Positions 1,774 to 61,397 of a DNA stretch of 64,000 nt are shown here, one piece after another. The stretch spans positions 3,475 to 67,474 of the forward strand of contig LZRT01000060.1 of assembly GCA_002159075.1 (NCBI GenBank). Reading direction: 5' to 3'. Source of the stretch: Bacillus thermozeamaize. Lineage in GTDB: Bacteria > Bacillota > Bacilli > ZCTH02-B2. Within the stretch, counting starts at the first letter, position 1. Every line of letters begins with the position of its first letter. The notes under the pieces were generated by a model. The model saw only the letters and a program-made list of their open reading frames with translations. It was not told the origin of the DNA and did not search any database. A program made the position numbers and the translations under genes.

Positions 1774-1796
1774 ATCGAGCGAAAGGGGGAAGCGAC

Positions 1797-3780: not shown

Positions 3781-3796
3781 TGTGAATTGGATCACG
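3781..3796 (-). promoter_or_regulatory. Crp/Fnr-type box TGTGA-N6-TCACG upstream of the radical SAM gene
   Basis: The sequence tgtgaattggatcacg has 1 mismatch to the TGTGA-N6-TCACA palindrome. A -10-like TATCAT on the minus strand (3759-3754) lies 32 bp centre-to-centre downstream, which is class-II Fnr promoter geometry. Confidence 0.5.
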
Positions 3797-3821
3797 AGCG
3801 ATTCCACCAAAAAATCCCATC

Positions 3822-41174: not shown

Positions 41175-41206
41175 GATTCGTTTCCACCTGCCTCCAACGA
41201 CCCTTT

Positions 41207-44200: not shown

Positions 44201-44458
44201 ATTGACGATGGCCTGCACTTTTTCGATGCCAAGTTGCCGGAGAAACCACTCCGGATCAGTATATGCAGGCAAAAGAGAACCAAGTATGGCTGCCCGGCTA
44301 GGCGTCAGCGGGCGCCGTGCCCACCAAACATGTAAAAAGTAAAGAGGAGGGAGTGCAGAACTTGCACCCCGTTCCCGTTGCGTTTCGGCGCCGACCTGAT
44401 GGCACGGAAATCCTGCTTCGATCAGACGTCGATCTTTGCGTTGCATGTGGCTGGTCAT
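41207..44458 (-). CDS. DUF1156-family DNA methyltransferase (N6-A/N4-C type, Zn-ribbon insert)
   Basis: N-terminal DUF1156 signature LIEAGFP...LHVWWARRPL. SAM motif I YDPTAGGGSIPFEA. Zn-ribbon CPHC...CVHC. Catalytic motif IV CMDPPYY. Confidence 0.85.
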   Translation of the reverse strand: MTSHMQRKDRRLIEAGFPCHQVGAETQRERGASSALPPLYFLHVWWARRPLTPSRAAILGSLLPAYTDPEWFLRQLGIEKVQAIVNGQPWTLTGQIVNRIETNDAHEEWIRVDHTVLQWIKKEQERRAKNREIIQKLCATDPSFKNHPVIIRWEQESQPFPEPLPDIGSILPVQRITADPAHVNERIEFAKTDQVKKILDSEIKWDPEDLYGYGRAFMHQPFFNSPNIKVYDPTAGGGSIPFEALRLGYSVIANDLNPVANVILYATLDYPVKFGEGLITDIKKWGEHLVSHVGKNMADVTPFSPLPKQELNYLYKHCTKCPELIPQFSGPEHDQIGLLYCRQVTCPHCGGEAPLLNTCWLSKEGDKWGVRIVTDGRSQGGTVRFETYRVKGNRGPNGEDPNFATVNNGVGMCVHCRQAIPADEIKAQARGESPHGRWTDRLYCVVAVRYQPKLDKNGNPQRYKSGERAGEVKTEKVRFFRPPNERDLQALAEAEKRLQEKWPEWEQMGLIPTESIPQGHKTAEPLRFGMNRWCDMFTPRQLLGHLILVEELNRIKPQILNELGEERGRAVVTYLQFMIDKGLDYNSKQTRWEYTRSIVKGTFGRHDFSLKWTFGEMIFTGPNSGAAWALSQVLDAYSGIAELLKPLHEKLNGSAPPVTILHGTAAHTDLPEKSVDLICMDPPYYNNVQYAELSDYFYVWQRRTLQDLYPDVYRRRLTNKTDEAVANPARDGSSANAAREYERMMGEIFSECRRVLKDDGIMTIMFTHKTQEAWEALTRSLIENGWTITTSLPVESESSESTHQKNMAAAASSIFLSCRKRFETNDVPATWSGFGGTGVAQKVREAVREGLKEFAPLKLNPVDEMVASYGRALQVLSENWPVLDGDELVTPMRAMREASAVVAEYQVARITNNRLKVEDLNPETAIALTLYGIFGLSEFPYDEALSLSRSLNISLEAKPAGYTVKGRMIGINNENQGRRARHQHAEETGYHAPLLRKNSKLRLARPEERNKRRLENPQTEWDILHGLIMSYREGDVPVARAYLAQHAEGKEQVILDLLSVWAAEMSEDTLRKEAEAMLFGLKS

Positions 44459-44483
44459 GATCGTTTCCCCTTTGCATTACCCC

Positions 44484-45101
44484 TCAAAATGATTTCCGAA
44501 GTTTTTCAAGCATCGTTTGAATCGATTTGTCTCCGGGTTGTCCTCCCAACATAATGCGCATGCCAGCAAGTGCCCAGCGGCTTCCGGCTGCTCCGTATTG
44601 TGTACTTCTGGTCAACCAATAGTTGGCTTCTTCAGCTGTGAAGCGTGCCACACGCCAAGCGATGAGCTCGACACGATCCATGTCCAATAAGCGTTCAGAT
44701 AGTTTAAATATCAGGGACAGTTTGGGTCCGGTTGCATGGTCAAGCGGCAAGTTTCCTCGAAATGTGATCTGGCCATTGCCAAGAAAACGATGTAATTCTA
44801 ATGGGGTCCCATCTTCGTCGCATACACTGGATAAGATTTGGCGAATGACAGGCAAACAGCGGCGCAGGGGTTGTCCGTATAACAAACCCCTGTCGCGTGT
44901 TTTGCGATTAGTTGCAGATGGATTGGTTTGTCGGTGATTATCTTCCGGATAATACCGTTCCTTCACTATCAGGACTGGGCTTGGTTTATCCTTATGTTCA
45001 GTGATCCGCAGTATCCAGGGCGCTTTTTTTTCAAGCGACTGGATCCGTTCCAGATCCTCCATCTCAAAATGGAAGCCATGTTCTTTCGTATTTTTGGCCA
45101 T
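44484..45101 (-). CDS. Small conserved accessory protein of the DUF499/DUF1156 module (tentatively DUF3780-like)
   Basis: 205-aa ORF packed between the ATPase and the methyltransferase (gaps of 18 and 25 nt). The family assignment comes from memory of typical neighbourhoods, not from a motif. Confidence 0.45.
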   Translation of the reverse strand: MAKNTKEHGFHFEMEDLERIQSLEKKAPWILRITEHKDKPSPVLIVKERYYPEDNHRQTNPSATNRKTRDRGLLYGQPLRRCLPVIRQILSSVCDEDGTPLELHRFLGNGQITFRGNLPLDHATGPKLSLIFKLSERLLDMDRVELIAWRVARFTAEEANYWLTRSTQYGAAGSRWALAGMRIMLGGQPGDKSIQTMLEKLRKSF

Positions 45102-45119
45102 GGTTCTGTATGCTCCGAT

Positions 45120-48100
45120 CTACGTTTTTTTGAGTTCCTGGATAAATGGGCAATTTTCATCCGGTTGCTCCACATCAAGGAAGGCTGCTGTGTAATCTCC
45201 CCGGCTCACGATGCCATCCAGTATTTCGAACAGTTCACCTAATGCCTTCATCGATTCCGGTGTCGCATTTTCCAGTCTGAGGGTGAGTGTTCCTCCGCCT
45301 GGAAGTAGCAGATCGAGGAATTCCATCGTTTTGATTTGAGTCCGGGCTCCTCTATTATAGAGGCTGCCGATGCGGCGAAGAAGAGGGAGGAGCTTGTCCG
45401 CACCTTCTTTTCCGCTTAGATGGAATCCACCTGCTGATGCTTGCTGCCATCCCTTTTGTTTTGCTTGATCAGGAGTGAACAACAGATCGCTTTCGTAAGG
45501 TACGTAAAAAGACGCCTCAAATCCTTGGATGAATTCAGGTTGTTCTGGCGTATAGACATCATATCGGGAAGCCACCAGTTTTCCTTCTTTGACAAGATCG
45601 ATCACGGCCTCTTTTACTTCTTGGTCGGGGAACTGGCCGTATATACTCTGAACTTCGGTGATGACTTGGCCCAAGGTGCTTGTGCCCTTATCACTAATAA
45701 TGTCCAAAACCACTTGTTGAACTTGTTGAGGATCATTCTTTTGCCTTTCTAACCATCCGCGTTGGTTGACGCCCTGTACAGTAATGAGCATATATCCAGG
45801 GGCTGAAAGATCGACATTTAATGGGATTTCTTGGTCCTGATGATATAGCTCGGATGGCGTGCTTTCCCCTTCCGATAAGCGATAAACGCACCATACGCCA
45901 TTTTTGACCCCTGCTCGTATGATTTGTTCAAAAACGGCGGGTGACTCCAGAACAGGCCATTTTCGTACACAGTAGAAGTTGCGCCGCAGATTTTCTAAGG
46001 AAACCGTGTCTTCCAAGCTGAAAAACAGCTGGCGCAGATTGACCAGGTCCTCTTGTGTCGTGTGGCTGTGGGTGATCAGTTCCTTGTCTTGAACCAAAGA
46101 TTCCCGGATGAGCTGTATAAAAGTGGCGCCTCCTTCGCCACCAGCCGTTTTGATGTCTTTGCGCACAATAAATCCAGTGGTAGAGGGATAGTAAAGCCCG
46201 GTGTAAATGGCTGAAACGGCGGTTTGCAACGCCTGTTCACGTTCGCTCCGACGCTCCTTAAAGTCAGATTCCTGCAGGCGGCGCGGGCTGATTCCATAGT
46301 TTTCAGGTTTTTCCGCAAGCGTGCGCATGGCTAACACTTGCCTGGCGACAAGTTCGATTCGTTGACGCGCTTCCTCTGCCTTGGTGCGATGAAGATTGTC
46401 CATGTCCAATTGTTCAGATGTGTCTTTTACGACGACTGTGTCCGGAACCAGAAGAAAAATCAGGTTTTGCTGTTCCCGTGGCCGGTTTGGCCCTTTCGTG
46501 GTGATCATCGCCTCGACATCGATGATCTCTGCTGTGGGTGAGACCACGCCCAAGACTGGTCTGCCTTTTCCATCCGGAAGATGTTCTGGAAGAGTTACAT
46601 CATGTTCTATATGAAACAAATCGGAGTGATTGGAGATGATTTTGCGGGCGGTACCTTTAATCAACTCTTTTACTTGGTCGCGCTCCAGTGTTCTGCGGAT
46701 TCTGGCTAACACACTGTTAATTGTCGGCTCTTCGCTTGCAAAATATCTCCCTTGTTCATGCCGAAGGTAAAAGGCGCTTTCATTGATTTCCTCCAAAGCA
46801 ATGCGCACTTGAGGGGGTGTCAATCCGGGAAAAGAAACACTGAACAAGGCTTCTGATTCAGTAATCCCGAAGATTCTCGAGTTTAATCCTTCTTCCCGTC
46901 CTACCAGGCTGTGCAGGAAAACGGTTTTCCATGTGTATTCGTAGAGTGGATGGCCCTCCGGATGAGGGTTTCGTTGATCAGCCAGTTCTGCATTGCTGTG
47001 CCCGCCTTCTAAAGTACCGGTATCCACACCCCCTACATCTGCATTTAACACGTACAATAAATCTGAAGCGCCTGTCCGGCCGAGGATTTCATTGACCACC
47101 CGATCAGAACGCATGTCCAAGTGGCAAGTATGGATCATGGGTACAGGTTGCTGTTTTTGCCACAAACTACGCACGGCCATCGAAAGTACCCGCAGCACGC
47201 CACGGGTGCCTTGGAAATTTTCGGCGCTAGCCAATTTCTTGTTTAAAAAATCCACCAGTGACGGGTGGAAAGGGTAATTGGCAATCATGCGTTGACGCAG
47301 ATTTTCGCTGACTGCTTCCTCCGGCAACAAGTGCGCGTTGCGCCGATACATTTCCATATATTTTTCAGCGACGGATTGGGCCGCTTCCCGATCCACGGAT
47401 ATAAACAGGCGCTTTGCAAAGACGGATGAAATTTCCGCCGCTTGTACGGGGGTAATCTGAACAGCATCCCGCGCGACCACGCTGGATACACCTTGAACGG
47501 CCTGTTCTCCGATGCTCAATGCATCGTCTTCACTTACTTCTTCTCCGCGCACTTTGCTGATGAGTTGTGCCAATTGCTTGGTCTGTTTGGAAAAAGCATC
47601 TGTCGCACTGGCCAGTGTCAGGACTATGGCGATCCCTGGTTGATTCCGCGCATATCCATGAAGGGCCATCAAGAATGCGGCAAGTTGATCCGCTCCGTTG
47701 GAACGAGCTGCCTCGAGACGTGCCGCATATTGAGCAAGCTCATCCAACATGATAAGAACCTTTTTTCCTTTGAGTACTTTATCAAAATAGTGTTTGCCTG
47801 GCGCAGCGTAAGAGTTGGCATCTTCTTCAACCTCACGGTACAACGATTCTCCACCGATTTGAAAGGCGATTTCTCCCCACAAAGTATACGGCACGAGGTC
47901 TCCTCCCCGGGGTTTGTGAACCGGAATTTCATCTCCGGCTACACCCACGACACAAATCGAATTTGGTTCCGGAAGAAGGGATGGGTCCAGTATATCTTTG
48001 ACCACGTGCCGAAGTTGGGTGCCTTGAAATGCCAGGTGGGTACAAGCGATAAGTGTATGTGTTTTTCCACCACCAAAAGCGGTTTCGAGACGGTGGATTG

Positions 48101-48344
48101 CGGGTACTGTCATGTCGCCGTTTATTCTGCTGAAAATTTCAGTCAAAATTTGGCGGAGGCCTTGCGTTGGATAGGTTGCTTCCTGAAAGAATAGCTCTGC
48201 ATTGGTATAAATGCTGTCCACTGCCGTACGTCCACTTCGATAATACTCGATGATAGGGCTAAGCGAGGCAGTAAAAATTTCCGGATTGAACATTCCAGCT
48301 AAAAGCTCTGGCCGAGGTTGGCATGTTTCGAGTACAGAGCGCAC
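45120..48344 (-). CDS. DUF499-family P-loop ATPase (BrxC/PglY-like)
   Basis: Walker A ETAFGGGKTHT, Walker B VLIMLDELAQY, about 1075 aa. The likely start is GTG 48344 (GGAGGG RBS 9 nt upstream). The ORF track extends to ATG 48419, which lacks an RBS. Confidence 0.8.
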   Translation of the reverse strand: MRSVLETCQPRPELLAGMFNPEIFTASLSPIIEYYRSGRTAVDSIYTNAELFFQEATYPTQGLRQILTEIFSRINGDMTVPAIHRLETAFGGGKTHTLIACTHLAFQGTQLRHVVKDILDPSLLPEPNSICVVGVAGDEIPVHKPRGGDLVPYTLWGEIAFQIGGESLYREVEEDANSYAAPGKHYFDKVLKGKKVLIMLDELAQYAARLEAARSNGADQLAAFLMALHGYARNQPGIAIVLTLASATDAFSKQTKQLAQLISKVRGEEVSEDDALSIGEQAVQGVSSVVARDAVQITPVQAAEISSVFAKRLFISVDREAAQSVAEKYMEMYRRNAHLLPEEAVSENLRQRMIANYPFHPSLVDFLNKKLASAENFQGTRGVLRVLSMAVRSLWQKQQPVPMIHTCHLDMRSDRVVNEILGRTGASDLLYVLNADVGGVDTGTLEGGHSNAELADQRNPHPEGHPLYEYTWKTVFLHSLVGREEGLNSRIFGITESEALFSVSFPGLTPPQVRIALEEINESAFYLRHEQGRYFASEEPTINSVLARIRRTLERDQVKELIKGTARKIISNHSDLFHIEHDVTLPEHLPDGKGRPVLGVVSPTAEIIDVEAMITTKGPNRPREQQNLIFLLVPDTVVVKDTSEQLDMDNLHRTKAEEARQRIELVARQVLAMRTLAEKPENYGISPRRLQESDFKERRSEREQALQTAVSAIYTGLYYPSTTGFIVRKDIKTAGGEGGATFIQLIRESLVQDKELITHSHTTQEDLVNLRQLFFSLEDTVSLENLRRNFYCVRKWPVLESPAVFEQIIRAGVKNGVWCVYRLSEGESTPSELYHQDQEIPLNVDLSAPGYMLITVQGVNQRGWLERQKNDPQQVQQVVLDIISDKGTSTLGQVITEVQSIYGQFPDQEVKEAVIDLVKEGKLVASRYDVYTPEQPEFIQGFEASFYVPYESDLLFTPDQAKQKGWQQASAGGFHLSGKEGADKLLPLLRRIGSLYNRGARTQIKTMEFLDLLLPGGGTLTLRLENATPESMKALGELFEILDGIVSRGDYTAAFLDVEQPDENCPFIQELKKT

Positions 48345-48434
48345 CTTGGATTTCCCTCCGTCGATGATGATCTTCTCATTGTTTTCGACATGAAAAAACA
48401 AAATCCTGCACCTCATCATAGAAGGGATATTTTT

Positions 48435-48471
48435 GTTCTAAGAACATTCATTCGGTGACAAACTTTTGTCA
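48435..48471. promoter_or_regulatory. Two palindromes in the divergent control region between the two defence operons
   Basis: GTTCT-A-AGAAC at 48435-48445 and TGACAAA-CT-TTTGTCA at 48456-48471. Both are perfect inverted repeats and candidate operators. Confidence 0.35.
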
Positions 48472-48524
48472 GAAAGTATTGGTATAACAGCAATAGATTA
48501 ACTTTTACATATTGAGGTGAGTGG

Positions 48525-49646
48525 ATGACGGAAACAAATATGGACTTAGGGCATATGGGTTTAGACCGGCAAATTGACAAGATGTTCTTGCTTCTGGCCA
48601 TTGGCGCGAGGAAATGGCAGGCGGACATAACGCGGGTGCCTGCGGAATTGCATGAAGGGCATTTACGGTTGATTCGGTTCGCCGTCCAGCATCGCGTGCC
48701 TTATCCGGCCGATTTGCACGAGCTGCTTCAATGGCTGCATCGTCCCATAGCAGAATGGCCGCTTCCGCACGTGGCCGAGCGTTTTCCGGCGGATGAGCCG
48801 GTGCTCGTGGATTATGCGGGGTTATCTATCTTTTATGAAGAATGGTTGGAGGAAAACGTTTCTGTGGAAGAGTCGGAACAGAAAGTGATGCGCGAAATAT
48901 TGAGCTATTGCCGGGAGGCCACGCCACCTCTGGAGCAGGCGTATCGAGCGATCCGCACTTTTTTGATTGAACATCCTGTGATTGAATTTATCAAGTTGAG
49001 AGCATTTCTTTTGTCGTTTGACAAGGAATTGCAAGAAAAAGTGCGGGATTGTTACGAAGAGATCAACCTGCCTTATCCCCGAATTTATTTGTGCCCTTAT
49101 TGTGGGTGGACGTTGACAAACCGTGACGGCGAATGGGAATGCACGCGCTGGGTATGCAAGCGCAACAGCGATTTCACACACTTTAATGTGCTGGATACTT
49201 CCGGTCATCAGAAGTACTATCGGCTCACCAAAGGCATTCAAAAATATGTCCAAAACCCGGGGCTTGCCGAGCTGGCACTGGCGCGGAAGCTCGAAGAACG
49301 GGGATGGGATGTGGAACTGTATCCGGACGTGGACCGCGTGGATCTGCGCATCACAAAAGATCAGATGCGAAAAGAGATCGATGTGAAGGATTACAGCCAC
49401 CCGAAGTTGCTGGCCGACTATCTTCTCGCCAAGATGGAGCAGGAAAATTGGGATAAGGATGTCATCTATGTCGTTCCGCAATATCAGGAGCGTTTTCATC
49501 CCGATTATGCGAAACGAGTTTTGCAATATCTCAGGCAGTCCCGGGAGAGATCCCCGCTGAGCGATTCCGCTTTTGAGGCTGCTGTCCAAGAAGTGCAAGT
49601 GATGGCGGAACGAGAATTTTTCATCCGTCTGGGGGAGGAATCATGA
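48525..49646 (+). CDS. Restriction-endonuclease-fold protein with Zn-ribbon (pPIWI-RE-associated REase)
   Basis: CPYCGW...ECTRWVC Zn-ribbon. PD-(D/E)xK-like PDVDRVDLRI...EIDVKDY near the C-terminus. First gene of a coupled three-gene operon (ATGA overlap with gene 2). Confidence 0.7.
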   Translation: MTETNMDLGHMGLDRQIDKMFLLLAIGARKWQADITRVPAELHEGHLRLIRFAVQHRVPYPADLHELLQWLHRPIAEWPLPHVAERFPADEPVLVDYAGLSIFYEEWLEENVSVEESEQKVMREILSYCREATPPLEQAYRAIRTFLIEHPVIEFIKLRAFLLSFDKELQEKVRDCYEEINLPYPRIYLCPYCGWTLTNRDGEWECTRWVCKRNSDFTHFNVLDTSGHQKYYRLTKGIQKYVQNPGLAELALARKLEERGWDVELYPDVDRVDLRITKDQMRKEIDVKDYSHPKLLADYLLAKMEQENWDKDVIYVVPQYQERFHPDYAKRVLQYLRQSRERSPLSDSAFEAAVQEVQVMAEREFFIRLGEES

Positions 49647-52600
49647 GGAAAAACGGGAGGCAAATAACGGAGGATTTGCGGAAACGATTTGTTGATTTGA
49701 CGGGAGACCGGGATGCGGCGGAGATGATTTTTCCGGTCGAGCTTCTCTTATGGGGGTTTTACCAGGTTCATTCGGAGGGGAAGGCTCAAGAGGCGTGGTC
49801 GCTGATTCCGGGCTATGATGAGCCGATTTTGCCGGGGACGCACCGGGAGCTGATTGCCCGTTTGCGGGTGCTGTTTCCCACATTCCGAAACCGCCAGGCT
49901 TGGCACGATCTGATTCAGGAATATCAGGAGATCGATTTGAAGTACCGGCTGTTTGCCATTACACCGGAGGGATATCTTCAGAAAAACACCCCGGACTTCA
50001 TTCCGGATCGGGAAACGGTCTACCGGCAAATTTTGGATAAGCCGATTCCTTTTCATGCCGTCGAGAATACGTTTGCCAAGCCGGGTCTGTTTGTTTATCA
50101 GAGATCGATCGATGGTCAGGTGCAGGAATTTCGCGGGGAGCTTTTTTCTCTCCCGAAAGTGGAAGGGAGAGTTAGGCGTCTGCCGCTTTACCGGTCGAAA
50201 AAACGCGTTGGCGGTTCATTTCCCGCGGACTGGATAGATATGTCCGAGGAGATGGATGAGATCTTGGGTGGGAGCCGTTTTCGGGATTTTGTCCGGCAAA
50301 GCCAATTTATACCTTTAGGGGACAAGCCATTTCAATATGCCGGAAACCTGCACATCGCCGGCGGCTTGGGCGTTGGCAAGTCCACTTTTATCTTGCTTGA
50401 AACCTACCGTCTGGTCAAAAAACATCAGGTGAAAGTGGGCATCATCGAGGGGTCGGTTGAAGGCGTCCTGGAAAAAGTTCGCGAATTGCGCAAGCTCGGG
50501 CTGAAGGCGGTTCCGATCATCGGCAGAAGCAACCGGACAGGGCATTTGGCGGAATTTTTATACTCGGTGAGCAAAAAGGCAGAGGATCTCACCTCGTTGC
50601 GGGAAGAAGCTGCGGACGAGCTCCGGTACCTGTCCGGAAAATGCGTTATTCACGCCTTGGCGGAAGATTTTGCTGGTGACCAGCACTATCCTTGCGCGGC
50701 ACTTCAACAGGAAAAACAGAAGCGATTACTTTGCCCATTGTACGCGCAATGCGGCGTGATTCGTCCGGAATTGGAGCTTGTCGATGCGGATGTGTGGGTG
50801 GCCACCGCCCCCAGCGTCTTAAAGTCCCGTTTTTCGCCGATGGTTGATCCGTATCGAAGGACCTATTATGAAGCGATGTACCAATACCTCGATGTGATTT
50901 TTGTCGATGAGGCCGATCAGGTGCAAATGGCGTTTGATCAGGCCTTTATCGGACAATACGATTTGATCGGCAAGAGCGATGACTTGTTTGGCCGTTTGGT
51001 GCGGTCGACGGCCCCTCGCGTGGCCAGCGATCCGGGGTTATATTCACATACGCTAGTATCAAATTGGCTCAGTCACTTCGATTATCTTCGGAATATCGTC
51101 AATAAAATGTATCATTTGCTGTCCCGTTCCCCTTCTTTGGCATCGTGGTTGAAAAACCGCATCTTTCATGTCTACCGGATTTTACACGATGTGGCGAAAC
51201 ATCTTTGGGGTGAGAACTATCAAGAGCAGGCGGGTTATAAAATGTTGTCAGACTACGCAAAAGAACCCCTCAACCACCTTGTGCTTTCCCCGATTGTCGA
51301 TCAATTGCTGAATCCCATCGATCAGCAGAGGAAAAAAAACCTATTGGCGCAATGTTTAAAAGCGATCGCGAACGAAGAAAAGCGATATGAAGACGAACCC
51401 AAACTGTTTCAGAAACTGGAGTTTTTCCTCTATCTGGCCCGCATTGACGAACATCTGCGGTATCTCACAACCAATCATCTGTATGTCAACCCGTATCTGA
51501 ATTTGGAAGAAGAGATTGGGCAGATGTTTCGCACGACGCCGAGGGATTATCACCCCTTTATCAAGGACAGCATGACCGGCCTGTTGTTGGGATACCGTTA
51601 CCTTGCTACGGACGGAGTCCGGGAAGGGCATTTCAAGCTCCTTGAATATAACGGGGTAGGCAGGGAATTGCTGAAAGACTGGCACCGCATTTATGAAGAT
51701 GCCGACCAGTGGGAAGGGCCAGCGGTCGTGTTTTTGTCAGGGTCCAGTTACGCGCCCGGGTCGCATCATTTTCACCTCGACATTCCGGTTCATTGGCTCT
51801 TGATATCCCAGCGGGAGAAGCCTTGGATTGATCAGCGGTTGAGACTGATTCCCGATTTGGAAGCCAATCGCTACCTGTATGTGTCTGGCACAAGGCATCG
51901 GGAAGAACGGACGTTGGCGATTCAGAAAATGGTGCGAGATTTGAAGGGGACAATTGCCAGTGAATTGGCATACTGGCGGGACGAAAACCGGAAAATCTTG
52001 CTTGTAGTGAATTCGTACGAGGATCTTGAGGGCGTCCGTGAAGTGTTACAATCCGATCCAGACTGGAAAGATTGCTTTCGTCTGTTGTCCAGAGAGAGGG
52101 TGGAAGAGGGGCATTTCATTCCCAAACGGTTTATCCGAGATTTTGCGCAGGAAGAGGCGGACGTTTTGGCGGTGCCCCTGACGGCCGTAAGACGCGGTTA
52201 CAACATTTTGCAACCGGATACCGGCCGTTCTCTGTTCGGCAGCGTCTTCTTCCTGGTGCGTCCATACCACGTCCCAGGGGATATGGCCTACATCATCCCG
52301 TCCTTACACGGTTACTTGCCTTCATATTTAAGGACGATCGGTTCGAAACGCCTTCAATACGAAGATGGGATCAAACACTTGCGGCATAAGAGTATTCAGT
52401 TTTTGGAGGATATGGTCCGCAAGCCGCAATTTTGGGCTCTCTTGGACGAAGATGAACGCCGGCTGTTGTCTTGGTACACCTTTATCCTCGTGTGGCAGAT
52501 GATCGGCCGCCTGTTGCGCGGGGGCACCAATGCCCGCGTCTGGTATGTGGACAGCAAATTTGCCCACCCACATGGCGTACATGGGACAGGGGTAGAAGAC

Positions 52601-52732
52601 AGCATGCTGGCTAGTTGGAAACAGATGTTGCAGGAATTGGCGGGCGACCTGATTGTGCAGGAACTCTACGGCCCATTTATGCAATCGATAGACCATTTGA
52701 TTAACAGTGAAAGGGAGATAGCGGATGTCTAA
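49643..52732 (+). CDS. SF2 helicase, XPD/DinG-like with putative 4-Cys Fe-S insert
   Basis: Walker A GGLGVGKST, Walker B VIFVDEADQ, motif VI QMIGRLLRG. Four Cys (C-x16-C-x12-C-x5-C) lie between Walker A and B, where XPD/DinG helicases carry their 4Fe-4S domain. Confidence 0.75.
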   Translation: MRKNGRQITEDLRKRFVDLTGDRDAAEMIFPVELLLWGFYQVHSEGKAQEAWSLIPGYDEPILPGTHRELIARLRVLFPTFRNRQAWHDLIQEYQEIDLKYRLFAITPEGYLQKNTPDFIPDRETVYRQILDKPIPFHAVENTFAKPGLFVYQRSIDGQVQEFRGELFSLPKVEGRVRRLPLYRSKKRVGGSFPADWIDMSEEMDEILGGSRFRDFVRQSQFIPLGDKPFQYAGNLHIAGGLGVGKSTFILLETYRLVKKHQVKVGIIEGSVEGVLEKVRELRKLGLKAVPIIGRSNRTGHLAEFLYSVSKKAEDLTSLREEAADELRYLSGKCVIHALAEDFAGDQHYPCAALQQEKQKRLLCPLYAQCGVIRPELELVDADVWVATAPSVLKSRFSPMVDPYRRTYYEAMYQYLDVIFVDEADQVQMAFDQAFIGQYDLIGKSDDLFGRLVRSTAPRVASDPGLYSHTLVSNWLSHFDYLRNIVNKMYHLLSRSPSLASWLKNRIFHVYRILHDVAKHLWGENYQEQAGYKMLSDYAKEPLNHLVLSPIVDQLLNPIDQQRKKNLLAQCLKAIANEEKRYEDEPKLFQKLEFFLYLARIDEHLRYLTTNHLYVNPYLNLEEEIGQMFRTTPRDYHPFIKDSMTGLLLGYRYLATDGVREGHFKLLEYNGVGRELLKDWHRIYEDADQWEGPAVVFLSGSSYAPGSHHFHLDIPVHWLLISQREKPWIDQRLRLIPDLEANRYLYVSGTRHREERTLAIQKMVRDLKGTIASELAYWRDENRKILLVVNSYEDLEGVREVLQSDPDWKDCFRLLSRERVEEGHFIPKRFIRDFAQEEADVLAVPLTAVRRGYNILQPDTGRSLFGSVFFLVRPYHVPGDMAYIIPSLHGYLPSYLRTIGSKRLQYEDGIKHLRHKSIQFLEDMVRKPQFWALLDEDERRLLSWYTFILVWQMIGRLLRGGTNARVWYVDSKFAHPHGVHGTGVEDSMLASWKQMLQELAGDLIVQELYGPFMQSIDHLINSEREIADV

Positions 52733-55214
52733 AGTCATGCAATTGTACTCATTTCCCGTGGATTTGAAGTCCGTTCCTGAAATCCCGCTGTATGCTTTGT
52801 CCATGCCAAAACCGTGGCGGGATTATCTTGCTCAATTTAAAGAGGGGGAGTATAAGTACCGCTTTAAGCTGCACGGGTTGGGAGACAAACTGGAAGCTGT
52901 CTTTCCCAGCATTATTTCTAGCCATTTTTCAACACAAGTGGTGAAGGACGGGAAGCCTTGGATCATTGCGACGGAGAAGCTGGATTTGGATGTGATTACT
53001 CAGATGTTTCTAAGCTGGTTGAAAGTGAAGGCCGGCAACGGTGTCACTGATCCCGGTCTGCTTCGTCAGTTGCAGGAACTTCCGGATTGGGATTGGAGCA
53101 CTTTTGATTTGGAACGGGATGTCTACGACGAAAGTATCTTGTACAAGGTGGTGCCGGGGCTGTTTGCCCATTCGTTTTGCCGCGAGCCGGTTTATTTTGA
53201 TATCGGCGGCCAAGAGCTTTCATTCTATCCGATTGCTGCGGCGGAAAATGGGTATGAATGCATGTCCGAGCCCATCCAGCGAAAGGGAGGCGCTTTTTCA
53301 TATGTCCTCCGATTGCGGTTGGTCACCCGCGGCCTTCGGGCGGAACAAAAGTGTCTCAACGTCAGAGTTGGTATTCGCCGCTTTGTGTTGCAACCAGTAA
53401 TTGAAAAGAAGTACTGCTTATTGCGATGGCAAAAGCGGTCTTCGATCTATCTCTCCCTCAACAATCCTTACATAAAACAGGATCGAGTTTCATTTGCGAA
53501 ATTGTTTGCTGTGCGAGACAATCGCCGGGAACAGGAACGCAAAACCAAGTGGGAGGATGAATTTGAAGAATATTGTTCCGACCTGGTCTCACGGCAACAT
53601 TTGTCGACAGATGCCATTTATTGCGATCCAAAGGCGTATTTTCAAGGGGTAAACGGCATTCGAGCCTTCATCACCTATTCACCTGCCGCCTTTACTATCA
53701 ACTATGGGGCGATACGCCCCGGTGCCGGCCTGTATGAGCGAAAAACACTTTTTGAGCGGTTTCAAGAAAGATTTCCGCAACTGAACTTATTGCCGCCTTT
53801 GCCTAGCATCGAGGTTCGGGATCGCCGGGAACGGAAACCAGTCCCACCCAAAAGGGATTCGATCTATACGCTGGAAGTTTGGTCAAAGGACATGGCGTTT
53901 TTTCAGGCCGTTTGTGAGCAGACTGGGGAAATCCTCGATACCTCTCCTTCCGAAACGTTGCCATCCTCTGTTTCCTTTCCCGTGGCGGATCCGGATACAG
54001 GCGAGATCCAGTGGGAACTGCGCGTTGTCCATAAGGATCCCGGTGTTATGGTATCCCCCTTGGACGACAGGCTGGCAACAGCGAAGGAAACGTTTAATCA
54101 AAAAGGAATCCAAAAAAGAATCGGCGAAATTCGCCGGTTTGTGGAACAGGCCAGGGAGAAGCCGATGATGGCGCTGGTGGAAATTGAAGATTATCCCAAT
54201 CATGAGCAGCCAACGATGCGAAAAAATGACCCCAAACATGCTGTGAGGATCGGGATGTTGCGCACGGGACGAATCACGCAATTTATCCATCCTTTTGGGG
54301 ATGATGAGCAGGAAAACACGGCACGGGTTCAAAACGCCCTTTACGATTTGTTTTCTGACCGGGGATTCTTGGATTCGAGGTGGCATTTTCTCCAGCATGA
54401 TGCGATGATCGTGGGCTTTGATTATCTATATCCAAAGATAGAGTGGACGAGCGAAGAAGGGGCCAGGCTGTGGAAACGCGGTATCATTCCGATCATGAGC
54501 TGGGTCCGGAATGGCGAGGTTTATGTGAAAATCGGCCGGAGAAAATGGGAAACGTTTGACCGCGCATTGCTGAGTTTTGATCCCTATGCGATGAAGGAGC
54601 AAACGCTGGATCAAGGTTTGATTGAGGGGTATGTGGCGAAAGAGGTTCAAGAGATTCTGGCGCAAACCGAACAACAGGTGTATTTGTTTGTCAACGCCGC
54701 CCTTCGCCGCCACTTATGGCACAGATTGGCCAATGACCGCATTCAGCTGGATCAACTGCCATTTGAACACGCGTTTGCGGGTCAGGAAAGACTACGGGTG
54801 ATCCGGATCAACACGACCGACGAGGTTCCTTACGCCGATGTGCCCAACGTGAAAGGGGAGCCGACGAGAGGTCAGGGATTGTTCAAGGATAGCCCTGGAA
54901 TCTACTATAGTGTGGGTGCCAGACCCGACACGATGCAGATTTCCAAGGAGAAAAATAAGTGGGAGAATCCACGGACGATGATTGTCAAACAGCGGGTAGT
55001 GGAAATTATTCCATTAGGTTGTTCCACGGAAGAGGAAAGGGATCAACTGGCCATTCTGACCCATCAATTGCGGCAAGTCAGCCTAACATACAAGGAGCAC
55101 ACGATCCTGCCTTATCCGCTTAAACGGTTGCAGGCATTTGAGAAATATATGAAGTCGATGGATGAGGTTGAAACCGTGGATGGATTTGAGGAGTTGGGGG
55201 ATGAGTCGGATTAG
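52725..55214 (+). CDS. pPIWI-RE-type Argonaute-like protein
   Basis: 829 aa. MID-like loop RIGMLRTGRITQFI (compare human Ago2 LGMATQCV). PIWI-like strand MIVGFDY. Second catalytic position reads LFVNAA. C-terminal LPYPLKRLQAFEKY. The operon context REase + DinG-like helicase matches the three-gene pPIWI-RE island described computationally by Burroughs, Iyer and Aravind. Confidence 0.7.
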   Translation: MSKVMQLYSFPVDLKSVPEIPLYALSMPKPWRDYLAQFKEGEYKYRFKLHGLGDKLEAVFPSIISSHFSTQVVKDGKPWIIATEKLDLDVITQMFLSWLKVKAGNGVTDPGLLRQLQELPDWDWSTFDLERDVYDESILYKVVPGLFAHSFCREPVYFDIGGQELSFYPIAAAENGYECMSEPIQRKGGAFSYVLRLRLVTRGLRAEQKCLNVRVGIRRFVLQPVIEKKYCLLRWQKRSSIYLSLNNPYIKQDRVSFAKLFAVRDNRREQERKTKWEDEFEEYCSDLVSRQHLSTDAIYCDPKAYFQGVNGIRAFITYSPAAFTINYGAIRPGAGLYERKTLFERFQERFPQLNLLPPLPSIEVRDRRERKPVPPKRDSIYTLEVWSKDMAFFQAVCEQTGEILDTSPSETLPSSVSFPVADPDTGEIQWELRVVHKDPGVMVSPLDDRLATAKETFNQKGIQKRIGEIRRFVEQAREKPMMALVEIEDYPNHEQPTMRKNDPKHAVRIGMLRTGRITQFIHPFGDDEQENTARVQNALYDLFSDRGFLDSRWHFLQHDAMIVGFDYLYPKIEWTSEEGARLWKRGIIPIMSWVRNGEVYVKIGRRKWETFDRALLSFDPYAMKEQTLDQGLIEGYVAKEVQEILAQTEQQVYLFVNAALRRHLWHRLANDRIQLDQLPFEHAFAGQERLRVIRINTTDEVPYADVPNVKGEPTRGQGLFKDSPGIYYSVGARPDTMQISKEKNKWENPRTMIVKQRVVEIIPLGCSTEEERDQLAILTHQLRQVSLTYKEHTILPYPLKRLQAFEKYMKSMDEVETVDGFEELGDESD

Positions 55215-55574
55215 AATCTCGATAAAAAGCCTTTGTATGTTCTAGGATGAAACAACAAGACATTTGGAATTGAAAGGCGAGTTTCCATAGTTCGGCTTTC
55301 AACTTGCATATTTACATTTGTATTTGAATTGTATTTGGAGATTTGTATTTGGATGATTTAAGATATGAAACAGTATTTTTGATGTCGTCGATCGGCAATC
55401 ATGCAAAAATCCTGGGAGATCGACGACACATTTATTTGGAAGTCTAAACATGTCTTCGATCCATGGAAGACGTGAGTTTCAAGGAATTTTGATTGTCCGT
55501 TATCTTCCAAAACGAATTAAAATCATCTATAATCCCTTTTAAGGAAAAGTATTGATATGATGGGACCGAAATGG
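55215..55574 (+). promoter_or_regulatory. CRISPR leader
   Basis: AT-rich 360-bp region on the leader side of the array. Perfect TATAAT at 55528-55533, about 42 nt before repeat 1. Three TTGTATTTG copies at 55318, 55329 and 55343. A 10-bp perfect hairpin at 55384-55427. Confidence 0.6.
55384..55427 (+). other. Perfect 10-bp inverted repeat (possible terminator of the pPIWI-RE operon or leader element)
   Basis: GTCGTCGATC (55384-55393) pairs with GATCGACGAC (55418-55427) across a 24-nt loop. Only a weak T-run follows (ACATTTATTT). Confidence 0.35.
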
Positions 55575-58500
55575 GTTTGTAGCTTACCTATGAGGGATTG
55601 AAACGAGTATGACACGGATGATAAGATGGTCTCTTATAAGGGTTTGTAGCTTACCTATGAGGGATTGAAACACGGCTTCAGAAGATGACCAATTGGAAAT
55701 CGTGGTGACGGTTTGTAGCTTACCTATGAGGGATTGAAACAAGGCCAAATACTTCACACGACCGCGAAAGTTGGACTTTGTTTGTAGCTTACCTATGAGG
55801 GATTGAAACCTCTACGCATAAAAATAGTTGACATCGTACGCTACAGGTTTGTAGCTTACCTATGAGGGATTGAAACCGGTATAGCGGTAGATTCTAATAA
55901 AAATATATATGGTTTGTAGCTTACCTATGAGGGATTGAAACTGGCATTTTCCTATCCATAAATCCAGCCGTTTACCGTTTGTAGCTTACCTATGAGGGAT
56001 TGAAACTTGGATGCATACACCGTCCGGGTGCGCTGTTCTGTGAGTTTGTAGCTTACCTATGAGGGATTGAAACACCGTTGGCATACAGCAATGCGTCTGA
56101 ACGCCATTTCCGTTTGTAGCTTACCTATGAGGGATTGAAACACCTTTGGCATGTCTCACACCCCTATTCCAGCGGCTCGTTTGTAGCTTACCTATGAGGG
56201 ATTGAAACAGGGAAAGGTGGTGGATATATACGCAAATGCACCGAGTTTGTAGCTTACCTATGAGGGATTGAAACCCAAAGGCGTTTCATCCTTTAATTCC
56301 CACACCCCAAGTTTGTAGCTTACCTATGAGGGATTGAAACGGCGCATTCCTTCCGATAGGATTCCTTCAGAAGATACGTTTGTAGCTTACCTATGAGGGA
56401 TTGAAACTAGTGCTCCAGTGTAAATTTCGCCATTTTAATCCTGTCGTTTGTAGCTTACCTATGAGGGATTGAAACACGAAACCTTGTCTTCATCGGCCTA
56501 TGGATGGCGGCGTTTGTAGCTTACCTATGAGGGATTGAAACGTAATAGCCCTGGAGAGCAGGACAGAAACATTGCGAAGTTTGTAGCTTACCTATGAGGG
56601 ATTGAAACTTCGGAAGGGGAATGTCCCGATCAACTCGGCCACGAGGTTTGTAGCTTACCTATGAGGGATTGAAACCCAGATGTTCCCGAACGCAACGCGG
56701 TTGTCACGGCAAGTTTGTAGCTTACCTATGAGGGATTGAAACTATTCCTCGCGGTGGGCTTCGTTGGCCGAATCGTAGAGTTTGTAGCTTACCTATGAGG
56801 GATTGAAACAGGTATGGTAAAAAGCACAACGGATTGGGCAATCCGCGTTTGTAGCTTACCTATGAGGGATTGAAACTGACGAAAGCTTCCCAATTTATGG
56901 CAAAGCGGATGCGAGTTTGTAGCTTACCTATGAGGGATTGAAACATGGGAACCTCGTTTACCGTTGTAAAACGACGGTCAATGTTTGTAGCTTACCTATG
57001 AGGGATTGAAACTCCTTCCTTCCGTTGACCACCTGCGCATCCGCATCACTGTTTGTAGCTTACCTATGAGGGATTGAAACTCCTTCCTTCCGTTGACCAC
57101 CTGCGCATCCGCATCACGGTTTGTAGCTTACCTATGAGGGATTGAAACCGGGATAGTCGTTACACCTTACGGTTGTTTGGCATGTTTGTAGCTTACCTAT
57201 GAGGGATTGAAACAAGGGGATGAAGCGGACGGCATCTTGCAGATCGATGTGTTTGTAGCTTACCTATGAGGGATTGAAACAATCCTTCCTCGCCCCGCCG
57301 ATTTTCTCCCCGACATCGTTTGTAGCTTACCTATGAGGGATTGAAACGCTTCTCCTTTAATGTGATATGTACCGTAGGATCTCCAAGTTTGTAGCTTACC
57401 TATGAGGGATTGAAACGATGCATAATTCACGTAGTTTACGATCGTAATCAATGGTTTGTAGCTTACCTATGAGGGATTGAAACCTCATCTTTTCTTCGGC
57501 TATGCGGATGTCGGAAATGGGTTTGTAGCTTACCTATGAGGGATTGAAACGGGTATGGCCACTCCGGAAAAAGATCCAACTCTCGCGTTTGTAGCTTACC
57601 TATGAGGGATTGAAACCTTTCTTTCAGTCTTGGCACGTGCAACCGTCCCGGGTTTGTAGCTTACCTATGAGGGATTGAAACTTTTGCGCTGCATCGGCTT
57701 TGCGGCTTTGCGCTCTCAGTTTGTAGCTTACCTATGAGGGATTGAAACTGAAGCCTGCGGCTGGCTTCCGCCTCATCGGACGCCTGTTTGTAGCTTACCT
57801 ATGAGGGATTGAAACGCGATCGCCCTAGCAATCTTACGCGTGACGTAAGCATGTTTGTAGCTTACCTATGAGGGATTGAAACTCCAACTTAACCATTCAC
57901 TTCCCTAACGTCACATACACGTTTGTAGCTTACCTATGAGGGATTGAAACTTAGCCCGTCGAACAAGCCGTTGGCTGCAAGTGGCGTGTTTGTAGCTTAC
58001 CTATGAGGGATTGAAACGCGGCGAAAAGAGGAAGCGCGTGGAAGTGTACCACAAGTTTGTAGCTTACCTATGAGGGATTGAAACGCGCAACCCCATCGCC
58101 AATCGTGCATGATAGTGGCCTGTTTGTAGCTTACCTATGAGGGATTGAAACATGTACCGGATGGGTGCCGTATCGAGCAATCCATCCAGTTTGTAGCTTA
58201 CCTATGAGGGATTGAAACCCGGTTTCATGATGCCGCCTCCTGTCTTTTTCGCAGTTTGTAGCTTACCTATGAGGGATTGAAACTACCCCTCCAACAGGCA
58301 AACCTTGGAATGAAAGCCAGTTTGTAGCTTACCTATGAGGGATTGAAACGTCTACGTCATCACCTCCACACCTAGATTGCCTGTCAGTTTGTAGCTTACC
58401 TATGAGGGATTGAAACGACTCAGCCAACTGCCAAGCCCTTCCACTGCAGTCGCGTTTGTAGCTTACCTATGAGGGATTGAAACAAGCTTCCGGGCCACCG

Positions 58501-61397
58501 GTTACCGTCACCATAAAAGCGTTTGTAGCTTACCTATGAGGGATTGAAACAAGCTTAGCAATCAGTCCATCGTGATCCTAGCTGAAGTTTGTAGCTTACC
58601 TATGAGGGATTGAAACCGTCCGCGCATACATACCTGTCAGCAAGCATCTCTTTCGTTTGTAGCTTACCTATGAGGGATTGAAACATCCGATCAACACCAG
58701 TTATGTCGTCAAGCAATTTTGGTTTGTAGCTTACCTATGAGGGATTGAAACTTAGAGTCGGGGCTCCCGTCGTAGCATGCCCTTGCTGGTTTGTAGCTTA
58801 CCTATGAGGGATTGAAACGCATTGGCTTCAGCTATGGATCTTTGCTGATCCGCATAGTTTGTAGCTTACCTATGAGGGATTGAAACATCCTGATCAACAC
58901 CAGTATAGTCGTCAGCAATGTATTGGTTTGTAGCTTACCTATGAGGGATTGAAACAAGAGCAACCATTTCCTCAATGGTTTGCAACAATGGAGTTTGTAG
59001 CTTACCTATGAGGGATTGAAACGCTTGGTCAATGCCTCTCTAAGAGCCTGAAACGTCTTCGTTTGTAGCTTACCTATGAGGGATTGAAACAAGGAATCAA
59101 TGCCCGTTTGGTTGATTTAAAGAACGGTTTGTAGCTTACCTATGAGGGATTGAAACCTCGGTCAAGGAATTCCCTTTGTCTGCTTGTTCATCCGGTTTGT
59201 AGCTTACCTATGAGGGATTGAAACGTGGATGAATAGTATTCGTGATCAGGTGGTGGTTAACGTTTGTAGCTTACCTATGAGGGATTGAAACTAAGGTTCA
59301 CCACCATATTCAAACCACTCCGTGATCCGGTTTGTAGCTTACCTATGAGGGATTGAAACGCTCAGCTTCCATGTCGATTGAAACGTTGACTGTTTATGTT
59401 TGTAGCTTACCTATGAGGGATTGAAACTGCGCCTATACCTACGACGAAGCTGTGAAAACCCTCGGTTTGTAGCTTACCTATGAGGGATTGAAACGAAATA
59501 TTTGGGGCAGACGCTTGGACAAGCAGGGGGGGGTTTGTAGCTTACCTATGAGGGATTGAAACGGGGTGGCCTTATGGTTGACCCTGAAGGATTCAAAAGT
59601 TTGTAGCTTACCTATGAGGGATTGAAACGATTCGTTCGCGCCGATAGGTAGCAGGTAGTCCCAGTTTGTAGCTTACCTATGAGGGATTGAAACAAGAACC
59701 TCGCAAGCCGTGACCCTTCCAGCTACTGTTAGTTTGTAGCTTACCTATGAGGGATTGAAACAGAATTTCTGAGATTTTCAATGCTGTTAATATACGGGTT
59801 TGTAGCTTACCTATGAGGGATTGAAACCGGCAGAGAAACGAGCTTGCCTACCGTCACGAGTACCGTTTGTAGCTTACCTATGAGGGATTGAAACATAATG
59901 GTATTATAAAATATGTCTAAGTTTCTTGTGGGAGTTTGTAGCTTACCTATGAGGGATTGAAACTAATATCACATTTTACGGGCATATGCCCGTTTTTTGT
60001 TTGTAGCTTACCTATGAGGGATTGAAACGTTTATCAGTTGATAAGGCATATGCATTACGTGGACTGTTTGTAGCTTACCTATGAGGGATTGAAACATCTT
60101 CATAGTCCAACTCAACAAAATTTGGAGCGTGTTTGTAGCTTACCTATGAGGGATTGAAACCCGCCTTGAATATTTCTTTGTAGGTTTTTGCGACAGTTTG
60201 TAGCTTACCTATGAGGGATTGAAACACGTATTTAAGCAACCTTTGTGCAACATGTTTCAATTCATGTTTGTAGCTTACCTATGAGGGATTGAAACACGTA
60301 TTTAAGCAACCTTTGTGCAACATGTTTCAATTCATGTTTGTAGCTTACCTATGAGGGATTGAAACACAAACATATCTAGCAAAAGTGCAACCATATCCAG
60401 TGTTTGTAGCTTACCTATGAGGGATTGAAACCTACATACACCACTTCTTCAAACACATCATCCATGTGTTTGTAGCTTACCTATGAGGGATTGAAACATG
60501 TCGTAGACAACCCTTCGACTAACATCAAGCTGTTGGTTTGTAGCTTACCTATGAGGGATTGAAACAAGTCAGAGCGACATGAGGGATATACCGTTCATTG
60601 GGTTTGTAGCTTACCTATGAGGGATTGAAACGATTATGTCCGTGATCAACCATCTCTTGTGGCTTTTAGTTTGTAGCTTACCTATGAGGGATTGAAACCA
60701 CTGAGTTTTCGGAAGTTGAAGGCGGAATGTACGGTGGTTTGTAGCTTACCTATGAGGGATTGAAACGAACAACATGGGCCTGATTCTGTTAGTTGTTCCT
60801 CTCCGGTTTGTAGCTTACCTATGAGGGATTGAAACTGTTTCCTGTACCTAATCCTAATCCTGTTCCGCAGCGTTTGTAGCTTACCTATGAGGGATTGAAA
60901 CGCCGGAACCGGGCCCGGAACCATATCCGGAACCTGTGCGTTTGTAGCTTACCTATGAGGGATTGAAACTACTTCCTATCCCATACCCTGAATTTCATCT
61001 CCCTCGTTTGTAGCTTACCTATGAGGGATTGAAACGTGACGGCTGGAGATGGTTCTGTAGAGGTACATAAAAGTTTGTAGCTTACCTATGAGGGATTGAA
61101 ACATATAGCTCCTGCATCCCCTTCCAGAGCACTGCGAGTTTGTAGCTTACCTATGAGGGATTGAAACACATGGTGGTGTTGGACGAGCTGTCGTCATTCA
61201 AAAGTTTGTAGCTTACCTATGAGGGATTGAAACCCGCATCCCTGAACAAGTGCGCGTCACCCAACGCAGGTTTGTAGCTTACCTATGAGGGATTGAAACC
61301 GGTCCGAACAGCCTCTTCAAAACCGACGCCAGTCAGTTTGTAGCTTACCTATGAGGGATTGAAACATGGTGTGATTGGTCACCGGAGCGCGGGTGTG

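Follow-up and report, generated by a model that had tools for sequence, protein, structure and literature searches.

The pPIWI-RE proteins are Argonaute-like proteins named for a conserved Arg and a conserved Glu, and Burroughs, Iyer & Aravind predicted in 2013 that they are encoded in three-gene islands, together with a restriction endonuclease-like protein (REase) and a DinG-type helicase (PMC3702460). We analyzed a locus of this type in a stretch of 64,000 nucleotides of Bacillus thermozeamaize DNA (assembly GCA_002159075.1, contig LZRT01000060.1, positions 3,475 to 67,474 of the forward strand), referred to here as the window. An earlier note, made from the sequence alone, had proposed that positions 48525 to 55214 of the window contain a complete pPIWI-RE island, and had referred to the 2013 prediction and to the former family names DUF3893 and DUF3962; these two names are confirmed by PMC3702460.

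In a 2024 survey, the PIWI-RE systems correspond to 'pAgo type III' (pAgo, prokaryotic Argonaute) of PADLOC, and no strategy is assigned to them (PMC11333966). The sole characterized family member that we found is PsPIWI-RE from Pseudomonas stutzeri (Huang et al. 2022, PMC10991935). This protein cleaves only in the combinations RNA guide/DNA target or DNA guide/RNA target, with guides that carry a 5'-phosphate or a 5'-hydroxyl group; cleavage was lost upon the substitutions D525A and D610A, but not upon R639A and E718A. The statement of the earlier note that the family lacks a worked-out mechanism holds for the three-gene system, for which none is described in the literature searchable up to 2026, but it has to be qualified for the PIWI-RE protein itself by this one biochemical study. 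In the DdmDE system, the catalytically dead pAgo DdmE binds target DNA via a short guide and loads DdmD on the non-target strand; DdmD is a DinG/XPD-like helicase that carries INS and Arch inserts as well as a PD-(D/E)xK nuclease at its C-terminus; it translocates in the 5'-3' direction and degrades the plasmid (10.1101/2024.05.10.593530).

The operon and its family

The three genes are located on the forward strand, and the list of open reading frames (ORFs) and direct reading of the sequence reproduced exactly the coordinates and overlaps given in the earlier note. The corresponding features, with protein lengths in amino acids (aa), are as follows:

48420-48524, + strand: 105-bp intergenic region between the pPIWI-RE operon and a divergent Hma-like operon (sequence read directly)
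48525-49646, + strand: gene 1, PprRE-type nuclease, 373 aa, with Y domain, Zn ribbon and PD-(D/E)xK REase domain (ORF list, Pfam, PADLOC)
49643-49646, + strand: ATGA shared by the stop codon of gene 1 and the start codon of gene 2 (sequence read directly)
49643-52732, + strand: gene 2, PprDinG-type helicase of the XPD/DinG family (superfamily 2, SF2), 1029 aa, with an N-terminal Z domain (ORF list, PADLOC, Foldseek)
52725-52732, + strand: ATGTCTAA, 8 nt in which the start of gene 3 overlaps the end of gene 2 (sequence read directly)
52725-55214, + strand: gene 3, Argonaute-like protein of the pPIWI-RE family, 829 aa, containing X, MID and PIWI (RNase H) domains (ORF list, Pfam, PADLOC, Foldseek)

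The locus thus shows the strict order of REase, DinG helicase and pPIWI-RE on one strand, and the overlapping gene termini (4 nt and 8 nt) imply a polycistronic unit, in which the ATGA overlap is indicative of translational coupling between genes 1 and 2. Shine-Dalgarno-like sequences precede the starts of gene 1 (GAGGTGA, 48514-48520), gene 2 (GGGAGG, 49633-49638) and gene 3 (AGGGAG, 52712-52717). The promoter of the operon is presumably located in the intergenic region 48420-48524, which contains a possible extended -10 element, TGGTATAAC, at 48480-48488 and in which a consensus promoter scan detected no canonical sigma-70 site. Antisense ORFs inside the three-gene region were dismissed as genes, as none of them matched a Pfam family.

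The proteins of the three genes were analyzed with the profile models of Pfam, PADLOC and NCBIfam. All six pPIWI-RE Pfam domains exceeded the curated cut-offs across genes 1 to 3, and the E-values of the family profiles for the three proteins ranged from 1e-13 to 1e-120, far beyond chance; NCBIfam provided no model for any of them. Membership of the island in the pPIWI-RE family is virtually certain, and it apparently represents a complete and functional three-gene operon (PprRE-PprDinG-PprPIWI in PADLOC, 'pAgo type III'). With the islands described in 2013 (PMC3702460) it shares the gene order, the overlapping termini, the defence-island setting and the patchy distribution. The domain sets are also the same, namely Y, Zn ribbon and REase for the first protein, Z and DinG, including a Cys cluster and a helical insert, for the second, and X, MID and PIWI with the signature Arg and Glu for the third. 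Whereas the architecture is thus identical, the island differs in its divergent sequence and in the Asp/Asn state of its PIWI domain. The operon of PsPIWI-RE has the same layout, with a 4-nt overlap between piwi-re and dinG (PMC10991935).

The order REase-DinG-PIWI was maintained in 11 of 11 distinct homologous loci, all of which are situated among other defence genes (BREX, Hma, AIPR, GmrSD or McrBC genes). As a raw count, BREX components (BrxA/B/C, PglX, PglZ or BrxL) were present within 10 kb in seven of these 11 loci (L001, L002, L006, L008/L009, L090, L094 and L095), and the operon is repeatedly found directly next to a BREX locus or within it. Several of these loci (L002, L006) also have a UvrD-like helicase gene immediately 3' of the PIWI gene. 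In an exhaustive HMMER search of 1.84 billion representative proteins, gene 3 retrieved 355 cluster representatives at E<=1e-3, and the nearest homologues, apart from strain variants with 95% identity, shared 62%, 42% and 35% identity. Among the GTDB species-representative genomes, gene 3 alone as query retrieved no related locus, and a 6-sequence alignment as query retrieved one distant Paenibacillus locus.

Compared with a metagenomic relative of 95% identity (locus L004), the ratios of nonsynonymous to synonymous substitution rates (dN/dS) were 0.19 for gene 1, 0.14 for gene 2 and 0.30 for gene 3, indicating purifying selection and hence that the function of the three genes is maintained. 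As a database finding, the island is a further, genuine and divergent member of a family that is already catalogued in Pfam and PADLOC; the new points are its natural Asp-to-Asn PIWI domain and the module-for-module correspondence with DdmDE. The value of an intact copy under selection is that it provides an experimental candidate and a testable model for the long-standing pPIWI-RE question.

The three proteins

The PIWI-RE protein encoded by gene 3 contains the following domains:

52749-53846, + strand: X domain, aa 9-374, an N-terminal lobe specific to the family and in place of N/PAZ (Pfam)
54105-54377, + strand: MID domain, aa 461-551, with the pocket D502, K504, R508, Q519 and F520 (Pfam)
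54480-55151, + strand: PIWI/RNase H domain, aa 586-809 according to Pfam, with the first beta-strand of the model starting at about aa 560 (Pfam, AlphaFold2 [AF2])

These domains matched pPIWI_RE_X (PF13111; E 3e-49, 168.6 bits), MID_pPIWI_RE (PF18157; E 5.5e-17, 62.8 bits) and RNaseH_pPIWI_RE (PF13032; E 2.4e-30, 106.8 bits), all above the Pfam cut-offs of 25-30.5 bits for the three models, and the PADLOC match to PprPIWI had an E-value of 2e-120. We built an AF2 model on an alignment of 84 gene 3 homologues (A1), which had a predicted local distance difference test score (pLDDT) of 92.5 and a predicted template modeling score (pTM) of 0.92. In a Foldseek search against the PDB, this model matched long Argonautes over its whole length (E ~1e-14, probability 1.0), and the 127 matches at E<=1e-3 included RsAgo, TtAgo, KmAgo, PIWI-clade Argonautes and hAgo2. 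The PIWI-like, Argonaute-like nature of gene 3 put forward in the earlier note is therefore borne out by both the profiles and the model. The overall fold and the MID-PIWI organization correspond to those of pAgos of the long-A and long-B types (TtAgo, RsAgo, KmAgo, CbAgo; target-normalized TM-scores of 0.45-0.55). In contrast to these proteins, an X domain replaces N/PAZ, the DEDX tetrad is incomplete, and there is an obligate link to a helicase and an REase; furthermore, no sequence or profile similarity to PDB chains was detectable for gene 3. Since no PDB sequence was retrieved by the pPIWI-RE family profile at E<=10, a solved structure appears to be lacking for the entire family.

The MID domain is highly conserved. 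D502, R508 and F520 of its pocket were invariant and K504 and Q519 were present in 83 of 84 sequences of alignment A1. The motif GRITQFI, described in the earlier note as an Argonaute MID-like loop, is located in this domain at aa 515, and gene 3 shares the MID motif DPKH..R..TQFI with PsPIWI-RE. Of the two family-naming residues, R694 was found in 80 and E760 in 83 of the 84 homologues. In the model, R694 is part of strand 690-696 and E760 of strand 758-764, an arrangement that is compatible with the Arg-Glu salt bridge predicted for the family across the PIWI beta-sheet extension.

The PIWI domain contains D566, N657, the signature residues R694 and E760, and H780. The codon of D566 (54420-54422) lies slightly upstream of the Pfam domain boundary, and that of N657 is AAC (54693-54695), a single base from GAC. 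When the sequence of PsPIWI-RE (supplement of PMC10991935) was added to alignment A1 with MAFFT, its residues R639, E718 and D610 aligned to R694, E760 and N657, respectively. D525 was placed within two residues of D566, its putative equivalent as judged by eye (hhhGhD versus VLSILLD); this offset does not affect the conclusion on N657. Therefore, whereas PsPIWI-RE possesses both catalytic Asp residues and cleaves its targets, gene 3 has an Asp/Asn pair instead of a complete acidic pair. As N657 aligns to the essential D610, the PIWI domain of gene 3 is probably not a nuclease and has probably lost its own cutting activity.

The substitution is not confined to the window, since N657 was also found in the relative of 95% identity and in that of 62% identity, the latter of which lacks the first Asp as well. 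Acidic residues at both catalytic Asp positions were observed in 6 of the 84 family members and at neither position in 46; this agrees with the statement made in 2013 that catalytic activity is restricted to a subset of the family. In the gene 3 model, N657 forms the C-terminal end of strand 651-657, the site expected for the RNase H beta4 Asp, and three helices (611-616, 620-626 and 630-647) lie between the N-terminal strands (560-603) and this strand. In the minimal RNase H fold, a single helix is expected at that place. The Foldseek matches also included the TtAgo 'N546 mutant' structure 3ho1, the classic Asp-to-Asn, catalytically dead TtAgo mutant, and we infer that N657 is the structural equivalent of N546.

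The helicase encoded by gene 2 contains the following features, for which conservation was determined in alignment A4 (44 homologues, the majority of them from Paenibacillus and Bacillaceae, with identities of 24-95%):

49718-50101, + strand: Z domain, aa 26-153 (Pfam pPIWI_RE_Z, PF18155, E 1e-17)
50360-50383, + strand: Walker A, G240-GLGVGKS-T248 with K246 (G240, G245 and K246 invariant)
50642-50752, + strand: four-cysteine cluster C334, C351, C364 and C370, putative 4Fe-4S domain (invariant)
50906-50917, + strand: motif II DEAD, D422-E-A-D425 (D422, E423 and D425 invariant, A424 at least 90% conserved)
52496-52519, + strand: motif VI, Q952-MIGRLLR959 (Q952, G955, R956 and R959 invariant)

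All peptide motifs quoted in the earlier note for the three proteins were present, each at one position; those of gene 2 are GGLGVGKST (aa 240), FVDEADQ (aa 420) and QMIGRLLRG (aa 952). Gene 2 matched PprDinG of PADLOC with an E-value of 1.6e-108. Pfam identified only its Z domain, and no Pfam or NCBIfam helicase model matched; sequence and profile searches against the PDB retrieved a marginal Walker A match (reverse gyrase, E 0.0045) and a non-significant match to DinG (E 2.4). Because these searches gave no significant match, the assignment to the DinG clade had to rest on a structure model. The AF2 model (pLDDT 84.5, pTM 0.85) retrieved exclusively members of the XPD/DinG family at Foldseek ranks 1-34 (E 2e-11 to 3e-7), namely Rad3/XPD, the DinG proteins of Escherichia coli and Staphylococcus aureus, DinG associated with clustered regularly interspaced short palindromic repeats (CRISPR; CasDinG) and DdmD, and other SF2 helicases appeared only from E 3e-5. 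Together with the invariant ATPase motifs, this makes the model-based assignment to the DinG clade well supported. Both similarities on which the earlier note had made its proposal depend, that of gene 3 to PIWI/RNase H folds and that of gene 2 to helicases, were thus found. The helical region aa 448-629 of the model corresponds to the large helical insert expected of the family. The spacing C-x16-C-x12-C-x5-C was as reported earlier, and the cluster is placed, like that of XPD and DinG, after Walker A (aa 240-248) and before the DEAD box (aa 422-425); this position and the invariance of the four cysteines suggest that it binds a 4Fe-4S cluster.

The protein encoded by gene 1 is composed of three parts, whose conservation was assessed in alignment A5 of 16 homologues:

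48639-48983, + strand: Y domain, helical, aa 39-153, with the conserved R144 (codon 48954-48956) (Pfam)
49092-49157, + strand: Zn ribbon C190, C193, C206 and C211 (all four cysteines invariant)
49260-49592, + strand: REase PD-(D/E)xK domain, aa 246-356 (Pfam PF18154)

Gene 1 matched pPIWI_RE_Y (PF18156, E 9.7e-13), pPIWI_RE_REase (PF18154, E 6.5e-22) and PADLOC PprRE (E 2.3e-34), in accordance with the Zn ribbon and the PD-(D/E)xK-like core recognized in the earlier note. Its motifs are located at aa 190 (CPYCGW), 205 (ECTRWVC), 267 (PDVDRVDL) and 284 (EIDVKDY). R144, Y140 and F146 of the Y domain were invariant. The candidate catalytic residues are E249, D270/D273 and D286-V-K288, and since E249, D270, D273, D286 and K288 were all invariant, the PD-(D/E)xK core (E..D..DxK) looks intact. 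A profile of gene 1 retrieved only non-significant Zn ribbon-like matches from the PDB.

Proposed mode of action and alternatives

A role of the island in defence is likely, and we lean towards nucleic acid-guided defence against invading DNA, carried out by one translationally coupled pPIWI-RE operon. In the scheme that we propose, the PIWI-RE protein, with its Argonaute fold and intact MID pocket, would load short guides, probably RNA, anchored by their 5' end. The guide would pair with complementary plasmid or phage DNA to give an R-loop or D-loop-like hybrid, and the PIWI domain with N657 would act as sensor and loader only, leaving the target uncut. Target binding would recruit the helicase onto the displaced strand, on which it would translocate in the 5'-3' direction by analogy with DinG, XPD and DdmD, and the Zn ribbon PD-(D/E)xK nuclease would cut the DNA and degrade the invader. 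We regard this specific handover from PIWI-RE to helicase and REase as evenly poised, and the type of guide and the formation of a complex are likewise predictions.

The precedent for this scheme is DdmDE, a parallel drawn in the earlier note that holds module for module. The system of Vibrio cholerae (10.1101/2024.05.10.593530; PMC11795196) consists of the same modules, namely an inactive Argonaute-fold sensor, a DinG/XPD-like helicase and a PD-(D/E)xK nuclease, and four DdmD chains matched the gene 2 model (9khv_A, 8u3k_A, 9ix4_B and 9ixm_A at ranks 16, 27, 29 and 32, E 4e-10 to 5e-8). However, the nuclease of DdmDE is fused to the helicase in a two-gene system, whereas in this three-gene island it is, as the earlier note had pointed out, a separate 373-aa polypeptide encoded upstream. 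Furthermore, the INS domain of DdmD has no Fe-S cluster, whereas gene 2 maintains four invariant cysteines, and no DdmDE counterpart was identified for the Y and Z domains. The guides of DdmE, a pAgo of the 'long-C' type, are 5'-phosphorylated DNAs of 12-14 nt, whereas gene 3 is a member of a separate family, pPIWI-RE, that has the X domain; no DdmE chain was among the best 50 Foldseek matches of gene 3. By analogy, the island likely works like DdmDE, with the nuclease on its own polypeptide and the Fe-S cluster retained. If the reading of a sensor PIWI and an REase effector is true, the island would be a split, Fe-S-containing counterpart of DdmDE, PIWI-RE and DdmDE would form one mechanistic class of Argonaute-helicase-nuclease defences, and an added role of the Fe-S cluster and of the Y and Z domains would emerge.

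Several points weigh against this proposal. No experimental test of defence by any pPIWI-RE three-gene system was found in the searchable literature, and the only in vivo phenotype reported, that of a piwi-re deletion in P. stutzeri, is ciprofloxacin sensitivity and a cell-division defect (PMC10991935). BLASTP aligned PsPIWI-RE and gene 3 in the MID motif only, and because the two proteins are so distant, the guide type cannot be transferred with confidence from one to the other. Gene 3 retains the first catalytic Asp, D566, and the REase fold is assigned to gene 1 on the basis of the Pfam model and the motif only.

The model originally proposed for the family in 2013 (PMC3702460) is R-loop-directed restriction without programmed guides, in which PIWI-RE reads RNA-DNA hybrids of heavily transcribed invader DNA, the R-loop is unwound by DinG, and duplex DNA is subsequently cut by the REase. 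R-loops are acted on by DinG-family helicases (cited in PMC3702460), PsPIWI-RE accepts only RNA/DNA hybrid combinations, and a probably non-catalytic PIWI suits a pure hybrid sensor. We nevertheless consider this model rather unlikely for the island: the 5'-end pocket of the MID domain was invariant or nearly so in 84 homologues, which argues for the anchoring of discrete guide ends and not of nascent transcripts, the sparing of the host's own R-loops is left unexplained, and the solved DdmDE precedent uses loaded guides. A dead PIWI might also sense invader nucleic acid and free the REase, with or without the helicase, for indiscriminate DNA degradation that leads to cell death or arrest. Such abortive infection would fit the N657 substitution, and an inactive PIWI with a separate nuclease is the layout of long-B pAgo-nuclease and short pAgo systems, for which abortive infection has been described (PMC11333966; PMC13535254). 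However, an XPD/DinG translocating helicase is typical of directed degradation, as by DdmD, and is not known from pAgo effectors of the abortive infection type, and we judge this explanation improbable. That the operon serves a housekeeping function, such as replication, decatenation of the chromosome or cell division, appears very improbable, although the phenotypes of the P. stutzeri deletion mutant mentioned above point in this direction (reviewed in PMC11555693). The distribution of the family is patchy, as seen in the number of clusters retrieved, and all 11 distinct loci sit among defence genes. In addition, the guanine-plus-cytosine (GC) content of the island differs from that of the neighbouring core genes, falling from ~0.58 to 0.44-0.50 from roughly 36 kb onward, and bona fide defence pAgos also provide protection against ciprofloxacin (PMC11555693).

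Guided defence by the operon itself also has to be weighed against an involvement of the CRISPR array that follows gene 3:

55575-63468, probably + strand: CRISPR array in which the 30-nt repeat GTTTGTAGCTTACCTATGAGGGATTGAAAC occurs 95 times (Rfam CRISPR-DR2, 47.5 bits per copy)

The array starts 360 nt past the gene 3 stop codon, with a leader region at 55215-55574. Because the degenerate last repeat (63439-63468) is at the end far from the operon, the leader is probably adjacent to the operon, and transcription of the array probably runs in the direction of the operon (+). The layout of operon and array was the same in L004 and L005. In the closest distinct lineage, of 60-70% identity (L001, Bacillaceae bacterium GCA_054589455.1), a 42-copy array of the same repeat family (1573-4383, reverse complement GTTTGTATCGTACCTTTAAGGAATTGAAAC) is located upstream and divergent, with its leader end towards the operon and a GGDEF gene in between, so that the leader end faces the operon in both closest lineages (the window with L004, and L001). 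These observations, the CasDinG structures among the best matches of gene 2 and the acceptance of 5'-OH RNA guides by PsPIWI-RE would favour a type IV-like CRISPR system composed of gene 2 and the array, or the guiding of PIWI-RE by array transcripts. Type IV-A CRISPR-Cas systems with CasDinG share with the island the XPD/DinG helicase and an adjacent array. In contrast, the island neighbours Hma-like genes and an array with an insertion sequence transposase gene, and neither Csf nor other cas genes were detected in the scanned parts of the window around the island or after the array in L004. Furthermore, the nine other distinct pPIWI-RE loci contained no CRISPR array within 10 kb, the array of L001 is positioned and oriented differently from that of the window, and PADLOC classifies gene 2 as PprDinG and does not list any CRISPR-associated DinG model for it at E<=0.01. 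The repeat end ATTGAAAC is typical of type I-B/III arrays and not of type IV. A type IV reading and a functional coupling to the array were accordingly rated unlikely, with 9 of 11 distinct loci free of arrays and no cas genes nearby; as a general explanation of the system, we consider this alternative extremely improbable, and the adjacency of operon and array is read as defence-island co-location. It is a highly improbable idea that in this Bacillales subclade the dead PIWI-RE may draw its guides from transcripts of the neighbouring array and would then hand the target to the DinG helicase and the REase, which, if true, would mean that an Argonaute-like protein exploits CRISPR memory independently of Cas proteins.

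Genomic setting

The array is interrupted by an IS256/Mutator-family transposase gene (61519-62745; Pfam Transposase_mut, E 7e-132), which is flanked by the repeats at 61336 and 62976. Two pairs of repeats, one at 56983 and 57051 and the other at 60196 and 60266, are followed by duplicate spacers. In L004, the array is much shorter (~2.4 kb).

In the low-GC stretch, a ParE toxin gene is followed by an Hma-like system on the reverse strand, the pPIWI-RE operon and the CRISPR array. The Hma-like system consists of four genes (37257-48419) and is divergent from the pPIWI-RE operon:

37257-41174, - strand: Hma-like PLD-SNF2 helicase (PADLOC PLD_Helicase, PbeA, HmaA)
41207-44458, - strand: Hma-like DUF1156 adenine methylase (HmaB)
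44484-45101, - strand: DUF7680 protein of the Hma-like system (profile scan)
45120-48419, - strand: DUF499/DUF7744 ATPase (HmaC)

In L004, the Hma-like methylase is divided between two ORFs (716 and 359 aa). At the edge of the low-GC island (36651-37128), where the GC content drops from ~0.58 to ~0.45, a 74-aa ORF without Pfam match overlaps the 89-aa ParE toxin gene (PF05016, E 2.5e-13), and the two form a probable type II toxin-antitoxin pair. Carriage of the island by a plasmid or phage was dismissed, as there was no near match in the plasmid collection; protein searches against plasmids and phages retrieved only distant, partial matches to one 5.5-Mb record and two Bacillus phage records. 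The core part of higher GC content encodes a nitrous-oxide reductase (NosZ-type propeller and cupredoxin, 7250-9118 and surroundings), and the host, an uncultured member of the Bacillales, is therefore probably a denitrifying or N2O-reducing bacterium. The MnmA protein, also encoded in the core part, shares 83% identity with MnmA of a Bacillota metagenome-assembled genome and 72-75% with that of Paenibacillus. Further genes of the core part encode a methyl-accepting chemotaxis protein (13017-14516) and an acyl-CoA dehydrogenase.

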